IMG/VR virus record: IMGVR_UViG_2663762992_000006
Source: a virus
Lineage: Duplodnaviria > Heunggongvirae > Uroviricota > Caudoviricetes
Strand: one strand, 5' to 3'
Length of the DNA stretch: 4,966 nt
The position numbers and the translations under genes were made by a program. How positions within the stretch are numbered: position 1 is the stretch's first letter; the number at the start of each line of letters is the position of its first letter. Shown one piece after another: positions 1 through 4,966 of the stretch. The notes beneath the pieces are model-generated. The model was not told the origin of the DNA and made no database searches. It saw nothing but the letters and a program-made list of their open reading frames with translations.

Positions 1-782
1 AAGGTCGTACAACGACGCTTGGCCGTGGAGGCAGCGATTATACGGCAGCCTTGCTGGCGGAGGCTTTACACGCATCTCGTGTTGATATCTGGACCGACGT
101 CCCGGGCATCTACACCACCGATCCACGCGTGGTTTCCGCAGCAAAACGCATTGATGAAATCGCGTTTGCCGAAGCGGCAGAGATGGCAACTTTTGGTGCA
201 AAAGTACTGCATCCGGCAACGTTGCTACCCGCAGTACGCAGCGATATCCCGGTCTTTGTCGGCTCCAGCAAAGACCCACGCGCAGGTGGTACGCTGGTGT
301 GCAATAAAACTGAAAATCCGCCGCTGTTCCGCGCGCTGGCGCTTCGTCGCAATCAGACTCTGCTCACTTTGCACAGCCTGAATATGCTGCATTCTCGCGG
401 TTTCCTCGCGGAAGTTTTCGGCATCCTCGCGCGGCATAATATTTCGGTGGATCTCATCACCACCTCCGAAGTGAGCGTGGCATTAACCCTTGATACCACC
501 GGTTCAACCTCCACTGGCGATACCTTGCTGACGCAATCTCTGCTGATGGAGCTGTCTGCACTATGCCGGGTAGAAGTGGAGGAAGGTCTGGCGCTGGTCG
601 CGTTGATTGGCAATGACCTGTCAAAAGCCTGCGGCGTTGGCAAAGAGGTATTCGGCGTACTGGAACCGTTCAACATTCGCATGATTTGTTACGGCGCATC
701 CAGCCATAACCTGTGCTTCCTGGTGCCAGGCGAAGATGCCGAGCAGGTGGTGCAGAAGCTGCATTTTAATTTGTTTGAGTAA
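1..782 (+). CDS. lysC: Aspartate kinase III (lysine-sensitive aspartokinase), C-terminal portion; 5' end lies outside the window, reading phase starts at nt 3, stop TAA at 780-782
   Basis: Frame-3 translation from nt 3 reads GRTTTLGRGGSDYTAALLAEALHASRVDIWTDVPGIYTTDPRVV... and ends ...GEDAEQVVQKLHFNLFE, which I recognise as the kinase core and C-terminal ACT-domain region of enterobacterial LysC. The ORF is open to the window edge. The other ORFs in the track over 19-682 are out of frame or antisense to it. Confidence 0.93.
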   Translation, partial: GRTTTLGRGGSDYTAALLAEALHASRVDIWTDVPGIYTTDPRVVSAAKRIDEIAFAEAAEMATFGAKVLHPATLLPAVRSDIPVFVGSSKDPRAGGTLVCNKTENPPLFRALALRRNQTLLTLHSLNMLHSRGFLAEVFGILARHNISVDLITTSEVSVALTLDTTGSTSTGDTLLTQSLLMELSALCRVEVEEGLALVALIGNDLSKACGVGKEVFGVLEPFNIRMICYGASSHNLCFLVPGEDAEQVVQKLHFNLFE

Positions 783-794
783 ACGATCAGTAGA

Positions 795-824
795 GGTGAA
801 TAGCGACCCACGACGCTATTCACC
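795..824. terminator. Stem-loop between convergent lysC and the Mor-like gene; possible bidirectional terminator and/or island boundary
   Basis: Perfect 11-bp inverted repeat GGTGAATAGCG (795-805) and CGCTATTCACC (814-824) around an 8-nt loop, 13 nt after the lysC stop and 13 nt before the stop of the minus-strand gene. There is no strong T-tract on either side, so the intrinsic-terminator call is tentative. Confidence 0.4.
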
Positions 825-836
825 ATGCCGGTTCAA

Positions 837-1184
837 TTACGAATTACTGCGGCGCTGTTGCTTTTCCGCATGTACGCGTTTCACTATCTTATAAATCCAT
901 TGCAGCGTCAGATTATATTTCTTCGCTAATTCGGCGTAGTTGCGCCCATCGCACTCGCTATAGATTTGGTAGTCACGCTCCGACGCCCGTCCGGAGATCC
1001 CTTTTGGGAAATAAATGCTTTGCCCGCCCCAGTTGCGCATCATTCGGTCGGCAATGGCAAAGCCCACATTTTCCGCCGATGAACTGTCGAGATTGATGCT
1101 TTCAATCAGAACTTGCGATGCATGAAAAGCCAGGTCGTTAATGATCTCCGGTGTCCGGACCATCTCTTTTGATTTTCGTATCAT
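837..1184 (-). CDS. Mor/C-family phage transcriptional activator (Mu middle/late operon regulator-like), 115 aa
   Basis: Complete ORF with ATG at 1184-1182, preceded by GGAGA (complement of 1191-1195) 7 nt upstream, and stop at 839-837. The C-terminal half carries the signature I recall for Mu Mor and C proteins: ...RNWGGQSIYFPKG... (glycine-rich turn followed by Y-[IF]-P-[KR]-G) then ...DGRNYAELAKKYNLTLQWIYKIVKR (HTH-like). Assignment is by motif recall, not search. Confidence 0.8.
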   Translation of the reverse strand: MIRKSKEMVRTPEIINDLAFHASQVLIESINLDSSSAENVGFAIADRMMRNWGGQSIYFPKGISGRASERDYQIYSECDGRNYAELAKKYNLTLQWIYKIVKRVHAEKQQRRSNS

Positions 1185-1390
1185 TTTTCATCTCCATATA
1201 TCTTGCATCCTGAATAAGACCCGATGCGTGTAAAACCACGGATATACGCTAAGCAGTTGTCATTACTGCTACTCAATACATTCAACAAACAAATAAACAA
1301 TCACCAGAAATATAAATTCTTAATATTAATGAACGCATAAATTCACTAAATAAATATATTGTTTGCGTTATGTTTCTTGTCAACAGGAGT

Positions 1391-1451
1391 ATCATTTTAC
1401 ACGATACTGTATGCACATACAGTATTATTTTTACCTGTAGTGTAAAAAGAT
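1391..1451. repeat. Imperfect 12-bp inverted repeat (11/12) flanking the LexA-box palindrome
   Basis: ATCATTTTACAC (1391-1402) pairs with the reverse complement of GTGTAAAAAGAT (1440-1451); the perfect 8-bp core is TTTTACAC / GTGTAAAA. Each arm contains a TTTACA hexamer resembling a -35 element, one on each strand. Confidence 0.5.
1405..1424. promoter_or_regulatory. Candidate LexA operator (SOS box)
   Basis: TACTGTATGCACATACAGTA matches the enterobacterial LexA consensus TACTG(TA)5CAGTA in both conserved half-sites (TACTGTAT / ATACAGTA, CTGT-N8-ACAG). It differs only at three central, weakly conserved positions and is itself a 10+10 inverted repeat with a 2-bp centre. Location is 221 bp upstream of the Mor-like start and 297 bp upstream of the holin-like start. 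Confidence 0.65.
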
Positions 1452-1720
1452 CGTTTCCCTCACAGTCGCTGACTTTCTTAAACAAACTTTAAAAATCAAA
1501 TAACTACTGACTATTCCTACGATTCACCATCATCTTTTCCCTGCATAATGACGCGCTTATTCGCGAGGTCACCTTTTGCTCTTTAATTGCTGAGTGGATT
1601 TATTAGCGGGCATGTTCATTTATAGAGAATCTATTTTTTAAAGTTATTTATTAAAGCTTTTTTCATTCTTCACTGGCGGGTTCTGGCGACACTAAACGCT
1701 CACTTATCAGGAGATACCGT

Positions 1721-2008
1721 ATGAAAAAAGTCACTCTTCCCCGGCTTTCCGGTTGGCTGGTCGCTTCCGTCGCGCTGTTTGTCGTGATCGGCTGGACCTC
1801 TTCAGCACAGATCCCGGTCGTCATTTATAAACTAAGCCTGGTTTCGCTTTCCGCGGTGCTGGGATACTGGCTCGATCGCAGTTTGTTCCCATGGGCACGG
1901 CCTGACTCTTTTAGCCCATGGAAGGAACCGCGTTGCTGCGCGGCGGCAATGATTCGCCGCGCCATCATCGTTGCCGCCGTCTGTCTTTCCGTCGCCTTAG
2001 GGCTATAG
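1721..2008 (+). CDS. Small integral membrane protein with three predicted TM segments; putative holin or lysis-associated membrane protein, 95 aa
   Basis: ATG at 1721 with AGGAGA (1709-1714) 6 nt upstream; stop TAG at 2006-2008. Hydrophobic stretches LSGWLVASVALFVVIGW, VVIYKLSLVSLSAVLGYWL and AIIVAAVCLSVALGL. It sits immediately upstream of a peptidoglycan-degrading enzyme gene. Atypical for a holin in ending inside the last hydrophobic segment with no charged C-terminal tail. Confidence 0.6.
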   Translation: MKKVTLPRLSGWLVASVALFVVIGWTSSAQIPVVIYKLSLVSLSAVLGYWLDRSLFPWARPDSFSPWKEPRCCAAAMIRRAIIVAAVCLSVALGL

Positions 2009-2010
2009 TG

Positions 2011-2616
2011 ATGTGGCTGAAATATATCGCGTCTATGATTATTTTCGTTCTTTTCCCTCTTAACGCCTCTGAACCGCCGCGAGCCTCTCTGGCATGGCGA
2101 AACGAACTAATTCGTACCGCTCGAGAAGTCTGGGGACTGAACGCCCCAGTGGCCGACTTTGCCGGGCAATTACACCAGGAGTCCGCCTGGCAGCCAATGG
2201 TACGTTCCCCCGTTGGCGCACAAGGCATGGCGCAATTTATGCCTGCCACAGCGACATGGATAAGCCTGTTGTATCCGCAGCTACGTGAAAATAAGCCCTA
2301 TAACCCAACCTGGGCGATTCGCGCACTGGTGCAATATGACCAGCATTTGTGGAAAAACATCTCAGCGAAAAATGATTGTCAGCGTATGGCGTTTACCCTA
2401 AGCGCCTATAACGGCGGTCAGGGATGGGTTAACCGGGATAAAAAACTGGCTGCATCCAAAGGGTTAGATGCCACTAGCTGGTTTGGTCATGTCGAGCGAG
2501 TCAACGCCGGGCGCAGCGCCACGAACTGGCGAGAAAATCGTCGCTATCCGAAGATGATCCTCTATCAACATGCCGCCCGCTACCTACTCTGGGGGCAGGC
2601 AAGCTGTCTTCATTAA
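2011..2616 (+). CDS. Family-1 (SLT-domain) lytic transglycosylase with N-terminal signal peptide or signal-anchor; endolysin-like, 201 aa
   Basis: I place the start at ATG 2011, 3 nt after the holin-like stop; the track ORF starts at 1918, but that upstream extension overlaps the holin gene. The N-terminus MWLKYIASMIIFVLFPLNA-SEPP looks like a Sec signal peptide. SLT motifs are present: catalytic Q-E-S (QESAWQP), GAQGMAQFMPATA, and AYNGG. Stop TAA at 2614-2616. Confidence 0.85.
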   Translation: MWLKYIASMIIFVLFPLNASEPPRASLAWRNELIRTAREVWGLNAPVADFAGQLHQESAWQPMVRSPVGAQGMAQFMPATATWISLLYPQLRENKPYNPTWAIRALVQYDQHLWKNISAKNDCQRMAFTLSAYNGGQGWVNRDKKLAASKGLDATSWFGHVERVNAGRSATNWRENRRYPKMILYQHAARYLLWGQASCLH

Positions 2617-2628
2617 TCAGAGGGGCCG

Positions 2629-2943
2629 ATGAAACTCAGTATCGATTTTTGGGAAGTGATCTCCCTTATGCTTTCCTTCGTTGGATTAATGTTTGCTGCC
2701 GGAAAATTGCTGTTAGCGCAAATTGAAAAAAGACTTAATGAGCGTTTTGAATCTCTGGAAAACGCGCGCCGGGAATCAGAAACAAGTTGGTCGAAACTGG
2801 AAAGAGAATTTCTCGAATTTCGTGCCGAGCTTCCGCTGCATTATGTCCGCAGAGAAGATTATCTTCGTGGCCAGGCAGTATTAGAAGCAAAGCTGGATGC
2901 CTTATATAGCAAAATAGAGCTATTACAACGCGGTAGCTATTAA
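2629..2943 (+). CDS. Membrane-anchored coiled-coil protein; candidate lysis accessory (i-spanin-like or Mu-type lysis-cassette protein), 104 aa
   Basis: ATG at 2629 with GAGGGG upstream. N-terminal hydrophobic helix ISLMLSFVGLMFAAGKLLLA, followed by a highly charged heptad-like region (QIEKRLNERFESLENARRESETSWSKLEREFLEFRAEL...LEAKLDALYSKIELLQ). Its position right after the transglycosylase fits a lysis cassette. No partner outer-membrane lipoprotein (o-spanin) was found. Confidence 0.6.
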   Translation: MKLSIDFWEVISLMLSFVGLMFAAGKLLLAQIEKRLNERFESLENARRESETSWSKLEREFLEFRAELPLHYVRREDYLRGQAVLEAKLDALYSKIELLQRGSY

Positions 2944-3060
2944 ATTCAATTTTTTCTCTAAAGCAGATTAAAAGATTCTCCACCTTCATTACGTCAGAAT
3001 ACATTTCAACGATAACGAAGTGAGCGTTAACGAATCAGCGATAATTAAGGAACACCCTAT

Positions 3061-3516
3061 ATGGAAATTTTATCAGTAATGAATTCTGTTGTGACCAGAT
3101 TACGTGAACAGAATCCCGAAATGGATGTATCTATTTCATCGGTTGATACCCATAAATATATTCCGCAGACGCAGCAAGTTACAGTGATTATTAATTATAG
3201 CGGTTCTCTATTTGCCATGCCTGAAAGCAGTGATGCTCTCGTGCAACAGCAAACGCTCCGCTTAACCGCCACCGTTATTGTTGGCAAAAATTGTGATGCG
3301 TTAAACGCACTGGACCGCATACGCAGCGCATTGGGTGGCCTTCAGCTTCCTGATTGCGATCGTCTTCTTTGGCTTGAAAAAGAAATTAATACGGGTGAGA
3401 GCGGCGGTTTCTGCCGCTACATCCTGGAAATGGCGACCAGCTCGCTGTTTATCGCTGAACAGGAAAACACGGATCTTCCCCTACTTACGGAAGTTAATTA
3501 CGAGGAAACTGAATGA
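3061..3516 (+). CDS. Phage tail-associated protein, likely Mu gp37-like (tail terminator / sheath completion family), 151 aa
   Basis: ATG at 3061 with AAGGAA RBS (3047-3052). Two genes upstream of the sheath gene and translationally coupled to the next ORF through an ATGA overlap at 3513-3516, which matches the Mu gpK-gp38-gpL order as I recall it. Family call rests on synteny and recollection, not measured similarity. Confidence 0.55.
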   Translation: MEILSVMNSVVTRLREQNPEMDVSISSVDTHKYIPQTQQVTVIINYSGSLFAMPESSDALVQQQTLRLTATVIVGKNCDALNALDRIRSALGGLQLPDCDRLLWLEKEINTGESGGFCRYILEMATSSLFIAEQENTDLPLLTEVNYEETE

Positions 3517-3710
3517 AATACATCTACAACGGCCCGGCAAGCGGCGTCACCCTTGCCGACGGACAAGAAATCTTATTGTGGCCGAACAGTGAAATTGATC
3601 TGCCAGAAGACAACGAGTGGGTCATGACCATGATTGCCCGCAATCACCTGACTTCTGTCATCACTCAGGAAGAACAAAATAACGGAGAGGAAATTGTACA
3701 TGGCAGCTAA
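3513..3710 (+). CDS. Small conserved phage protein immediately upstream of the sheath gene (Mu gp38-like position), 65 aa
   Basis: ATG at 3513 overlaps the upstream stop (ATGA); its own stop TAA at 3708-3710 overlaps the sheath start region. Acidic, with no TM segment. Function unknown. Confidence 0.55.
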   Translation: MKYIYNGPASGVTLADGQEILLWPNSEIDLPEDNEWVMTMIARNHLTSVITQEEQNNGEEIVHGS

Positions 3711-4966
3711 TTATCTGCACGGTGTAGAAACCATTGAAATTGAAACCGGCCCGCGTCCCGTTAAAGCGGTAAAATCCGCCGTCATCGCTTTAATCGGTAC
3801 GGCCCCCTGTGGTCCGGTAAATAAACCAACATTATGCCTTTCTGAAAGCGATGCTGCGCAGTTTGGCTCAACTCAGGCTAACTTTACGATCCCACAGGCG
3901 CTGAAGGCGATTTATGACCACGGTGCCGGTACGGTGGTGGTAATTAATGTGCTGGATCCGGTAAAACATGGACTGCATGTTGCCAATGAAACCATTACGT
4001 TCAATAGTGCCGATAAAGCTAAATTAGCTCATCCGGGAGTAAGTTCAGTAATATTAAGACCAGGTACCAGTTCCACTACGTACAAAAATACATCTTACAA
4101 TGTTAATGCCGCAGATGGCGTTATAACCCGTACCGGAACTGAAATCCCGGCAGGGGCGAAGGTTTACGCGACGTATACCTATGTTGATCCTACAAAGGTC
4201 ACCGCAGCCGATATTATCGGTGCCGTAAATACCGCAGGCGACCGCACAGGGATGAAACTCCTTCAGGACACCTATAACCTGTATGGTTTCTACGCCAAAA
4301 TCCTGCTTGCTCCCGTGTTCTGTACGCAAAAATCAGTAACTACCGAGCTGATTGCACAAGCGGAAAAACTCGGTGCGATTACCTACATTGATGCCCCGAT
4401 TGGGACGACATTCCAGCAGGTATTGGCAGGACGCAGTTCGCAAGGCGCTATCAACTTCAATACCAGCTCTGATCGTGCGCGTTTATGTTACCCACACGTC
4501 AAAGTTTACGATGGCATCACTAACCAGGAAGTTCTCGAACCGCTCTCTTCGCGCGCTGCCGGGCTACGTGCCAAAGTAGACCTCGAAAAAGGTTTCTGGT
4601 GGAGCAACTCAAACCAGGAAATTCAGGGTATTACCGGTATTGAACGTTCGCTTTCCGCAATGATTGATGATCCTCAAAGCGAAGTGAATCAGCTCAACGA
4701 AAACGGCATTACCACTATTTTCAATAGTTACGGCTCTGGTCTGCGCTTGTGGGGCAACCGCACAGCGGCATGGCCTACCGTGACCCATATGCGTAACTTT
4801 GAAAACGTCCGCCGGACAGGCGATGTAATTAATGAGTCAATCCGTTATTTCAGTCAGCAGTATATTGATATGCCGATTAATCAGGCGCTGATTGATGCCC
4901 TGACCGAATCAGGCATCATTCAGGATCAACACCGGGCCGCGGATTTCTGTGTCGTCCAACTGTTGC
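3700..4966 (+). CDS. Contractile phage tail sheath protein (Mu gpL-like myovirus sheath), N-terminal about 422 aa; 3'-truncated by window edge
   Basis: ATG at 3700 with GGAGAGG (3685-3691) upstream; I translated by hand to the window end with no stop codon. N-terminus MAANYLHGVETIEIETGPRPVKAV... and the later NSYGSGLRLWGNRTAAWPT (sheath-type G-[LV]-R-[LV]-W-G-x-R-T signature) are characteristic of phage and tailocin sheath proteins. Absent from the ORF track only because it has no in-window stop. Confidence 0.88.
   Translation, partial: MAANYLHGVETIEIETGPRPVKAVKSAVIALIGTAPCGPVNKPTLCLSESDAAQFGSTQANFTIPQALKAIYDHGAGTVVVINVLDPVKHGLHVANETITFNSADKAKLAHPGVSSVILRPGTSSTTYKNTSYNVNAADGVITRTGTEIPAGAKVYATYTYVDPTKVTAADIIGAVNTAGDRTGMKLLQDTYNLYGFYAKILLAPVFCTQKSVTTELIAQAEKLGAITYIDAPIGTTFQQVLAGRSSQGAINFNTSSDRARLCYPHVKVYDGITNQEVLEPLSSRAAGLRAKVDLEKGFWWSNSNQEIQGITGIERSLSAMIDDPQSEVNQLNENGITTIFNSYGSGLRLWGNRTAAWPTVTHMRNFENVRRTGDVINESIRYFSQQYIDMPINQALIDALTESGIIQDQHRAADFCVVQLL

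Follow-up and report, generated by a model that had tools for sequence, protein, structure and literature searches.

A headless BcepMu-type contractile-tail element beside lysC in Escherichia coli: a candidate SOS-inducible R-type tailocin

Tailocins shape the competition between close relatives and are in development as narrow-spectrum antibacterials. The R2 pyocin of Pseudomonas aeruginosa, which is controlled by PrtN/PrtR, and BceTMilo of Burkholderia cenocepacia both descend from P2/KL3-type phages. The Rp4 tailocin (R-syringacin) of Pseudomonas syringae goes back to an SfV-like group of Mu-like phages (cited in PMC4684702), and the ST131 'tailocin' (Tantoso et al.) is a P2-like prophage in which capsid genes are still present. 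In the literature searched, no native R-type tailocin of E. coli or Salmonella was linked to any defined locus, and no particle, killing or induction results were found for the lysC-side locus described here.

The same element has been catalogued in Salmonella as the prophage remnant Def4 (PMC5322425; also PMC7380047), present in every S. Typhimurium genome examined (PMC5322425), and about 3% of complete E. coli genomes carry it. The literature searched handles Def4 as a remnant and nowhere as a tailocin, and the sole function given there to the locus is that of gtrABC (PMC7380047, PMC5322425). The sheath orthologue in Salmonella, STM4213, is transcribed and increased about 6-fold with indole in a microarray (PMC3405474). 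Def4 (STM4198-STM4219 in LT2, 'BTP6' in D23580) is the orthologue of our element, occupying the same site downstream of lysC with the same order, Mor (minus strand), holin, SLT, gp25-like, Gp37, gp38 and sheath through the fibre. Most proteins match over their full length at 61-97% identity, the fibre and DUF4376 proteins matching in part only, and the two copies share the LexA box and the late-promoter element; STM4215 (PDB 2GJV) is the Gp37 orthologue. Def4 differs by the presence of gtrABC (STM4204-4206) between gpV and gpW, and by a terminator hairpin after the gp25-like gene, which the lineage studied here has lost. The initial annotation had proposed a candidate enterobacterial Mu-type tailocin at lysC; a candidate does lie there, but it is less new than was thought because its Salmonella copy was already listed as Def4 (PMC5322425).

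Among phages, we compared the element with the Bcepmuvirus members Burkholderia phage BcepMu, Escherichia phage PhiKM and Klebsiella phage KP12. They have in common with it Mor, a Holin_2-3 holin, SLT, gp25, gp37, gp38, a late-promoter 17-mer and a P2-like block from sheath to fibre in the same order, whereas the transposase with MuB-like and other early genes, the repressor, Rz/Rz1, TerS/TerL, portal, F, G, scaffold, capsid, gp35 and gp36 belong to the phages only. The pyocins do not have the element's control by Mor and a predicted direct LexA operator, and the BceTMilo cassette has spanin genes where the element has none. By description only, Rp4 is alike in being the independently domesticated tail of a Mu-like phage, and unlike in its phage lineage, its host family and its retention of nested spanin genes.

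The window, that is, the whole stretch of 4,966 nucleotides analysed here, contains the following features; the earlier gene calls and coordinates were all reproduced (ORFs, Pfam, PHROGs).

1-782, plus strand: 3' part of lysC (ORF calls), a flank common to Salmonella, Phytobacter, E. albertii and contig L033
837-1184, minus strand: Mor-family transcription activator, 115 aa (Pfam PF08765, E 6e-38; PHROG late transcriptional activator, E 2e-35)
1396-1423, plus strand: candidate sigma-70-like promoter towards the holin (-35 TTTACA 1396-1401, 16-nt spacer, -10 TACAGT 1418-1423)
1405-1424: predicted LexA (SOS) operator TACTGTATGCACATACAGTA, exact CTGT-N8-ACAG
1444-1463, plus strand: conserved non-coding block AAAAAGATCGTTTCCCTCAC from a three-genus alignment, presumed functional
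1478-1499, plus strand: conserved non-coding block TTAAACAAACTTTAAAAATCAA from the same alignment, likewise presumed functional
1633-1657, plus strand: conserved block ATTTTTTAAAGTTATTTATTAAAGC, some 65 nt ahead of the holin start codon (ATG)
1721-2008, plus strand: holin, 95 aa (Pfam Holin_2-3, E 4e-27; PHROG holin, E 7e-35)
2011-2616, plus strand: lytic transglycosylase endolysin (SLT), 201 aa (Pfam SLT, E 8e-15; PHROG endolysin, E 6e-61)
2629-2943, plus strand: BcepMu gp25-like inner-membrane protein, 104 aa, with an N-terminal hydrophobic segment and the rest coiled coil by eye
2944-3060: intergenic gap, 117 bp
2958-2974, plus strand: late-promoter element CTAAAGCAGATTAAAAG, a 17-mer, followed by a conserved -10-like CAGAAT at 2995-3000
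3061-3516, plus strand: Gp37 tail terminator, 151 aa (PF09646, E 6e-34)
3513-3710, plus strand: gp38 homologue, 65 aa, small and conserved, in the terminator-sheath interval (PHROG 895, E 4e-34)
3700-4912, plus strand: tail sheath, first 404 or so of 473 codons (Phage_sheath_1 and Phage_sheath_1C, Pfam, on the full A10 protein)

On its left side the element starts straight after the stop codon of lysC (aspartokinase III), a core-genome flank that ends at nt 782, confirming that no head genes lie on that side. On the right, the window is 100% identical to E. coli A10 over nt 1-4912 and tracks the tail cluster up to that point; its last 56 nt (4911-4966) are rlmG, a core gene with another chromosomal position than the lysC-side tail cluster. 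The end of the window is thus chimeric or rearranged, and the tail cluster, taken at first to run to the end, stops at nt 4912, so that the sheath gene is cut at about codon 404. Of the tail set, the window by itself covers the terminator, gp38 and the larger part of the sheath gene, and nothing more.

The remainder was read in A10, where the sheath is followed by tube, tail-assembly chaperone, tape measure, gpU, gpX, gpD and the gpV spike, then gpW, gpJ, gpI, the fibre, a DUF4376 chaperone-like protein and a 151-aa ORF; beyond come unrelated genes and then yjbD/rluF. The element totals about 15.6 kb and 20 genes, and in window-identical genomes the contractile-tail set is complete (sheath, tube, chaperone, tape measure, hub/spike/wedge, fibre with its chaperone, terminator). 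The tail genes through fibre and chaperone that had been expected downstream are therefore there, without capsid, portal, terminase, Mu A/B transposase or integrase genes in the A10 element or the other window-identical genomes, and the reported absence of the whole head-morphogenesis block holds in these genomes. More broadly, annotation and tblastn maps, with complete relatives as positive control, revealed no head, packaging, replication/transposition or integration genes in A10, Salmonella, Phytobacter, E. albertii or L033. PhiKM Tnp, MuB, gemA, TerS, TerL, portal, F, G, scaffold, capsid, gp35 and gp36 gave zero matches in L001, L004 and L005. A functional Bcepmuvirus prophage, which would need transposase, MuB-like ATPase, repressor and head/packaging module, was ruled out.

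Gene-by-gene homology and order relative to BcepMu and PhiKM indicate that the element is derived from a BcepMu-type (Bcepmuvirus) transposable phage. The Mu-lineage origin first proposed stands as far as transposable-phage ancestry is concerned and is to be narrowed to the BcepMu type, whose early, head and neck genes are Mu-like and whose tail is P2-like. In complete prophages, found in 14 other Enterobacterales species, the order is SLT-Rz-gp25-TerS-TerL-portal-F-G-scaffold-capsid-gp35-gp36-gp37, and the window has the BcepMu order minus the block between gp25 and gp37. Relative to this ancestor, the early/transposition block, the spanin genes and the entire terminase-portal-capsid-gp36 block were lost, while Mor, holin, SLT, gp25-like, Gp37, gp38 and the full P2-like contractile tail were kept. 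The headless form occurs in E. coli, E. albertii, Salmonella, Phytobacter and one metagenome contig (L033), every copy beside lysC, and only lysC-linked copies are headless.

The point of deletion still carries its promoter element. The order of activator and lysis cassette, 117-bp gap, and gp37-like, gp38-like and sheath genes was seen again, and in this gap the ancestral late-promoter 17-mer is kept exactly at the site of head-gene removal, before gp37. It is present in 5/5 headless lineages; in BcepMu its only occurrences are ahead of the holin and of the scaffold gene, and in PhiKM-type prophages it lies between MuG and the scaffold gene. We regard 2958-3000 as a putative Mor-dependent promoter of the tail operon, with Mor binding to the 17-mer suggested by position only. 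Downstream, Gp37 has the terminator fold, akin to pyocin R2 and diffocin collar proteins, which bears out the assignment of 3061-3516 to a tail terminator and not a head protein. The gp38 homologue is 47-57% identical to BcepMu and PhiKM gp38, and the sheath 75% identical to that of PhiKM.

In the lysis cassette, the holin is 54-61% identical to the PhiKM and BcepMu holins, and the SLT endolysin, with a hydrophobic N-terminus that its translation suggests is a signal or anchor, 56-64% identical to BcepMu gp22 and PhiKM SLT. The third protein, reported earlier as a coiled-coil protein, is indeed present; its identity is that of a BcepMu gp25 homologue (45-50% to BcepMu and PhiKM gp25), and a spanin was ruled out by this homology and by zero match to Rz. 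Rz/Rz1, which precede gp25 in phages, are absent here, no lipobox ORF was found in the island, and SLT is separated from the gp25-like gene by 12 bp in both E. coli and Salmonella, against 16 bp in Phytobacter. Of the tailocin feature of an own lysis cassette, usually including spanins, holin and SLT endolysin were thus found and Rz/Rz1 were not.

Mor, the only regulator gene in the element, is 49% identical to BcepMu gp01 and 82-89% identical across genera (dN/dS 0.04 against Phytobacter). The initial annotation was right to place a Mor/C-family activator beside the lysis genes, but it lies on the opposite strand and diverges from them across a 536-bp spacer of about 34-37% G+C. In this spacer, Salmonella (TACTGTATATATATACAGTT) and Phytobacter carry the LexA box as well, as do E. 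albertii, contig L033 and further alleles from E. coli, so that five lineages keep it while the surrounding spacer DNA diverged. No such box was detected in non-coding position in either BcepMu or PhiKM, nor in those parts of 14 complete prophages that were sampled, a difference from the Bcepmuvirus phages. SOS-inducibility is predicted from this conserved candidate LexA box, which overlaps a promoter-like site, and putative LexA-controlled promoters can be read on both strands, towards the holin and towards mor. By eye, a -10-like TAAAAT on the minus strand (1394-1399), directed towards mor, overlaps the plus-strand promoter candidate. E. coli, Salmonella, Phytobacter and E. albertii all have the block CATTTTACAC (1393-1402) unchanged, and contig L033 departs from it with ATCTTACACC. 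Closer to the holin, TTAAACAAACTTTAAAAATCAA is similar to an element upstream of the PhiKM holin, and ATTTTTTAAAGTTATTTATTAAAGC is near-invariant in an alignment of three genera in which its flanks diverge. The TAAAG direct repeats of the latter resemble the late-promoter element, yet their spacing is 3 nt wider; it may be a promoter or operator.

Since head, packaging and replication were lost while a complete tail, lysis genes and a predicted DNA-damage switch were kept, the element is probably a phage-tail bacteriocin. We read the window, with fair confidence, as the left end of a domesticated BcepMu-type derivative of about 15.6 kb that would act as an SOS-inducible R-type tailocin, and the complete tail set without head, packaging or replication genes supports the earlier proposal of such a candidate. 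Upon DNA damage, cleavage of LexA would free the promoter or promoters overlapping the box at 1405-1424; Mor would then be produced and switch on the late promoter at 2958-3000, possibly together with another in front of the holin. Tails would be assembled in the cytoplasm, capped by a Gp37 hexamer, and the producer lysed by holin and signal-anchored transglycosylase. Freed particles would bind other strains by a variable fibre tip, contract and kill by membrane depolarisation. At least four fibre alleles have 260-310 N-terminal residues in common and differ partly or wholly beyond, with zero C-terminal similarity in 3/6 aligned pairs, and the N-terminus of the DUF4376 protein co-varies with the adjoining fibre allele.

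That the tail genes persist by chance or hitch-hiking and yield nothing useful, as the current listing of Def4 as a prophage remnant implies (PMC5322425, PMC7380047), appears rather unlikely. Distribution in E. coli is indeed patchy, the spanin genes are gone, and several of the sampled copies are damaged: in GN25 an IS1 follows straight after the sheath gene and tube through fibre are gone, in strain 500111 the left half is replaced by a resistance transposon, and in IAI39 and MS 21-1 ISEc53 and a ClbS-family gene are inserted inside the LexA box. However, each of the 20 genes remains intact when E. coli is compared with Salmonella, at near-saturated synonymous divergence. Over the Salmonella and Phytobacter comparisons, element dS was 0.65-4.4 (with lysC at 1.2 and pgi at 0.7 for comparison) and dN/dS 0.02-0.20 where measurable, Salmonella alone giving 0.03-0.20 (17 genes measured against Phytobacter, two Salmonella comparisons saturated in dS). 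All element genes are under purifying selection, and the locus is fixed at the same lysC site in five lineages. Losses were selective, touching head, packaging, transposition and spanin genes only and sparing the late promoter between them. A decayed remnant, the alternative first considered, is weakened because the ORFs are intact, selection acts across genera, and conservation extends to the LexA box and further blocks of the spacer.

A non-bactericidal role, with tails donated to co-resident elements that are tail-less or capsid-only, or with a contractile injection system directed at eukaryotic cells, seems very improbable. The tail set is complete and under selection, the target of the particle is not readable from sequence, and Gp37 is also similar to PVC, Algoriphagus and Anabaena cap proteins; against this, no AAA+ ATPase, toxin cargo or Afp/PVC-type gene was found among the 20 genes, and the fibre is of the P2 phage type (Phage_tail_fib and Phage_fiber_2 repeats) with swappable tips, which ruled out an Afp/PVC-type extracellular system. 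Moreover, the element lacks gp36, which in the phage is the joining protein on the head side, and no protein of the element has diverged further than Gp37 (56-61% identity); both points are consistent with lost head docking. We give equally little weight to retention of the element for gtrABC O-antigen glucosylation with incidental tail genes, since, despite the position of gtrABC within the Salmonella copy and its being the one literature-assigned function, E. coli, E. albertii, Phytobacter and L033 (to its end) have no gtr and still carry intact tail genes over the stretches recovered, and the tail proteins are themselves under selection.

Returning to the SOS-inducible tailocin, a wider version, which we put forward tentatively and consider doubtful as a whole, would make it an ancient lysC-side tailocin dating from before or around the Escherichia-Salmonella split. 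Host LexA would have replaced the phage repressor as master switch through the retained Mor, particles would exit without spanins, the element would have been lost repeatedly in E. coli, and the O-antigen-modifying gtr operon of Salmonella might protect the cell that makes the particles against them. If this were true, two of the best-studied bacteria would hold an unrecognised SOS-induced weapon.

The locus is a concrete and cheap target, with about 15.6 kb, one activator, one predicted LexA operator and natural fibre alleles. It could reveal how the late genes of a phage are rewired to answer to a host repressor, whether particles can be released without spanins, and whether E. coli and Salmonella use tail particles in gut competition. 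The tailocin reading would alter the treatment of 'Def4' in Salmonella genomics and of the 'incomplete BcepMu' calls that prophage finders may give in E. coli.

The genes that the initial annotation had called in the window were reproduced by ORF listing together with Pfam and PHROG scans, in the order given here.

Features of the window
Up to nt 782: 3' part of lysC
837-1184, minus strand: Mor-family activator (Pfam/PHROG)
536 bp between Mor and holin: spacer, G+C about 34-37%
1721-2008: holin
2011-2616: SLT lytic transglycosylase
2629-2943: 104-aa protein with a hydrophobic segment at its N-terminus
117 bp before gp37: gap
3061-3516: Gp37 (PF09646)
3513-3710: 65-aa ORF
From 3700: tail sheath gene

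No Rfam match, tRNA gene or significant repeat was found. The match of the window to identical genomes ends at 4912, and the final 56 nt (4911-4966) match rlmG, a core gene from another chromosomal position, at 100% identity, with an overlap of only 2 nt at the sheath gene/rlmG junction. The end of the window is therefore a chimeric or rearranged junction cutting the sheath gene: it could be a chimera of the assembly or of the window, or else a genuine rearrangement that broke the sheath gene of the source strain. Seven complete genomes of E. coli share at least 99.9% identity with nt 1-4912. In A10, an E. coli strain identical over this stretch, we found the tail genes that had been predicted to lie downstream (tube, tape measure, baseplate, spike and fibre), together with a chaperone-like DUF4376 protein.

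Genes of A10 downstream of the sheath gene
After the sheath gene: tube, tail-assembly chaperone, tape measure (783 aa)
Next: gpU, gpX, gpD, gpV, gpW, gpJ, gpI
End of the cluster: fibre (589 aa), DUF4376 protein, 151-aa ORF
Beyond the cluster: nucleotidyltransferase/slipin pair on the opposite strand, then the core genes yjbD and rluF

As had also been anticipated, the A10 cluster contains no capsid, portal, terminase, transposase or integrase gene. The tail element, from Mor through the 151-aa ORF, measures about 15.6 kb and replaces part of the lysC-yjbD spacer, which in K-12 is only 252 bp long; comparison with K-12 identified no direct repeats flanking the element. For the 151-aa ORF that closes the cluster (locus L001 36022-36477), conservation within E. 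coli is 97-99% and identity to STM4198 is 77%; Pfam gave no match, and the label assigned by PHROG, enoyl-CoA hydratase-like moron, is questionable. The tail element is followed, before yjbD, by the nucleotidyltransferase and slipin (SPFH/Band 7) genes (L001 36491-38415). Some 1,480 other E. coli genomes carry this pair, at about 93-95% identity, with no tail genes, which makes it a separate module.

The closest complete phages are Bcepmuviruses. The gene order of BcepMu starts with Mor (gp01, minus strand), early genes, transposase and repressor, continues with holin gp21, SLT gp22, Rz/Rz1 gp23/24, gp25 and gp26, then TerS, TerL, portal, F, G, scaffold, capsid, gp35 and gp36, and proceeds through gp37, gp38 and sheath gp39 on to the fibre gp52. 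Protein comparisons paired all window genes with counterparts in BcepMu or in PhiKM, a second complete Bcepmuvirus; NCBIfam gave no match for the gp25-like protein or gp38. Missing with respect to the phage are the early/transposition block, Rz/Rz1 and all of gp26 to gp36, and blastx detected no coding remnants above noise in the 117-bp gap.

In BcepMu and PhiKM, Rz/Rz1 separate SLT from gp25; the headless lineages examined have lost them cleanly, and the gap from SLT to the gp25-like gene in these lineages is 12-16 bp (window 2616-2629; Salmonella SARB27 locus L004 21768-21781). The 104-aa protein was considered as a spanin and rejected, as it matches BcepMu gp25 (45-50% identity) and not Rz, and a lipobox scan of all ORFs found no lipoprotein ORF in the island. 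Without spanins, release may be inefficient, shear-dependent, or aided somehow by the gp25-like protein.

Gp37 had been taken for a tail terminator, and a head protein in its place would have counted against the tailocin reading. The fold of Gp37 is that of a tail terminator, not of a head protein. Its identity to PDB 2GJV (STM4215) is 61%, and an AlphaFold model from 11 sequences had a mean pLDDT of 75. The "portal protein" label on Gp37 (PHROG 209; RefSeq BcepMu and phiE255) is an annotation error. Within the cluster, Gp37 evolves fastest, with 56-61% identity between genera compared with 90-93% for the tube, a divergence that fits the loss of its head-side partner gp36.

The distribution of the locus was assessed by scanning one genome per species with the Gp37 alignment as query, which returned 16 loci; an earlier search of representative genomes, in which Gp37 was the only query, gave no match. 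Salmonella and E. albertii were missed by the alignment-based scan and were added by other routes. A tblastn map revealed the complete order, SLT-Rz-gp25-TerS through capsid-gp35-gp36-gp37, in 14 species, including Mixta, Pantoea, Enterobacter, Erwinia and Serratia, and the headless order in E. coli, Salmonella, Phytobacter massiliensis, E. albertii and one metagenome contig (L033). All headless copies found lie immediately downstream of lysC, and the common junctions together with the common site suggest that domestication happened once. The element is carried by only about 3% of complete E. coli genomes. The Salmonella copy corresponds to LT2 STM4198-4219 and has been named prophage remnant Def4, mentioned for its gtrABC cargo alone (PMC5322425; PMC7380047). 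This O-antigen glucosylation operon (STM4204-4206) is located between Salmonella gpV and gpW (L004 31011-33846, in SARB27). O-antigen is a common receptor for tailocins, so that, speculatively, gtrABC could bear on self-protection.

The spacer between Mor and holin contains an exact LexA box, TACTGTATGCACATACAGTA, at 1405-1424, overlapping the sole sigma-70-like plus-strand site found (TTTACA-16 nt-TACAGT). In a three-genus alignment, the box and the neighbouring CATTTTACAC form an identity island amid a diverged spacer. The Salmonella box, TACTGTATATATATACAGTT, agrees with the textbook consensus at 19/20 positions, and a box is present at the same place in Phytobacter, E. albertii, L033 and other E. 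coli alleles. In L033 the CATTTTACAC block has diverged. Outside coding sequence, no LexA box was found in BcepMu, in PhiKM or in those parts of the complete prophages that were sampled, and the element has no repressor gene, from which we infer that LexA took over the repressor's role. The operator would gate a promoter to mor (a minus-strand TAAAAT overlaps the CATTTTACAC block), to holin, or both.

The 117-bp gap carries CTAAAGCAGATTAAAAG at 2958-2974, followed 20 nt on by a conserved CA(G/A)AAT. BcepMu has exactly two sites for this 17-mer, one upstream of holin and one in the interval from G to the scaffold gene; PhiKM-type prophages have it in the interval from MuG to the scaffold gene. 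Late promoters would be expected at such positions. It is kept before gp37 in 5/5 headless lineages, with a two-base variant in E. albertii and most E. coli, and we predict that the gap is a retained promoter. Loss of head genes on both sides of a promoter that was itself kept is not expected of a passive remnant. From the centre of the 17-mer element to the predicted start downstream is about 40 nt, a spacing like that reported for Mor and C of Mu, and Mor is the putative ligand of the element. A hairpin with a T-run precedes the 17-mer in Salmonella, Phytobacter, E. albertii and L033 (e.g., L004 22096-22140 and locus L031 9855-9900); in the window lineage this terminator-like hairpin after the gp25-like gene is lost (2944-2957), with a gap of 117 bp compared with 146-232 bp.

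Whether the element is decaying was addressed by codon alignments of A10 with Salmonella, where 20/20 genes are intact, and with Phytobacter, where 17 genes were measured. Gene lengths are equal or nearly so in these comparisons, except for the fibre and DUF4376 genes. The dS of the element ranges from 0.65 to 4.4, with 1.2 for the flanking lysC and 0.7 for pgi; the element has diverged to a similar extent as the core genes beside it. Its dN/dS is 0.02-0.20 where computable. Intact genes and low dN/dS indicate long-term purifying selection and not decay. The homologue of gpJ in Phytobacter (L005 18944-19947) matches over 249/371 residues only, without a clean ORF being recovered, perhaps because of a frameshift or insertion in that copy.

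Within E. coli, fully intact copies are those of A10, N-01 and PK-F-10122. The GN25 copy (L026 12061-13200) is 100% identical to the window, with IS1 right after the sheath gene and tube through fibre missing. In 500111 (L036 1-7400), a tet(A)/OXA-1/IS26 resistance transposon region stands in place of the left half, to mid tape measure. IAI39 carries ISEc53 (ISL3-family) with a ClbS/DfsB-family gene exactly in the middle of the LexA box (L034 905-925, 2800-2825), with an 8-bp target duplication, ATGTACAT; the insertion splits the promoter between its -35 and its -10. MS 21-1 (L021) has ISEc53 and ClbS-family genes at this position and no LexA box; SOS control has probably been lost in both copies. 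PADLOC and NCBIfam gave no match for the ClbS-like gene, the nucleotidyltransferase/slipin pair or the 151-aa ORF.

The fibre alleles (A10, 589 aa; N-01, 536; PK-F-10122, 608; IAI39 and E67, 526; Salmonella, 486) have 260-310 N-terminal residues in common and are partly or wholly different past those. Three of the six pairs aligned lack similarity beyond the common N-terminal part, and for A10 and PK-F-10122 identity stays at 75% across about 545 residues. Variation in the fibre is accompanied by variation in the N-terminus of the adjacent DUF4376 protein. Changing the fibre tip is a way in which tailocins and phages alter their target range. In E67, ws5-3 and MS 21-1, the PGAP annotation splits the fibre into two pseudogene fragments; for E67 we rejected this, since the 526-codon ORF is uninterrupted (L023 14487-16067), and it was therefore not counted as a lesion. 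The E67 DUF4376 gene is annotated as shorter (197 aa vs 235).

In the literature searched, no functional study of the lysC-linked locus was found, and the published E. coli ST131 "tailocin" (PMC9205054) is another element, a P2-like prophage with capsid genes for which lysC is not mentioned. The lysC-linked element does not qualify as a functional prophage or as an Afp/PVC-type system. Apart from a complete lysis cassette, the features of an R-type tailocin that sequence can show appear to be present, SOS inducibility being predicted from the LexA box. We propose that DNA damage would release LexA from its operator, and that Mor would then be made and would fire the tail promoter, possibly the lysis promoter too. 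Tails would be assembled with Gp37 as cap, the producer would be lysed by the holin and the signal-anchored transglycosylase, and the released particles would kill strains that the fibre tip recognises.

In its proposed function, the element is like R-type pyocins and BceTMilo, the latter also broken exactly at the head-tail boundary, and it resembles the Mu-group-derived Rp4 syringacin. It differs in its BcepMu-type ancestor, in being apparently under a direct LexA operator plus Mor, and in having no spanins. In conclusion, the architecture of the element is near certain, and we consider it reasonably probable that it functions as a bactericidal tailocin, in which case it would be a further R-type tailocin.
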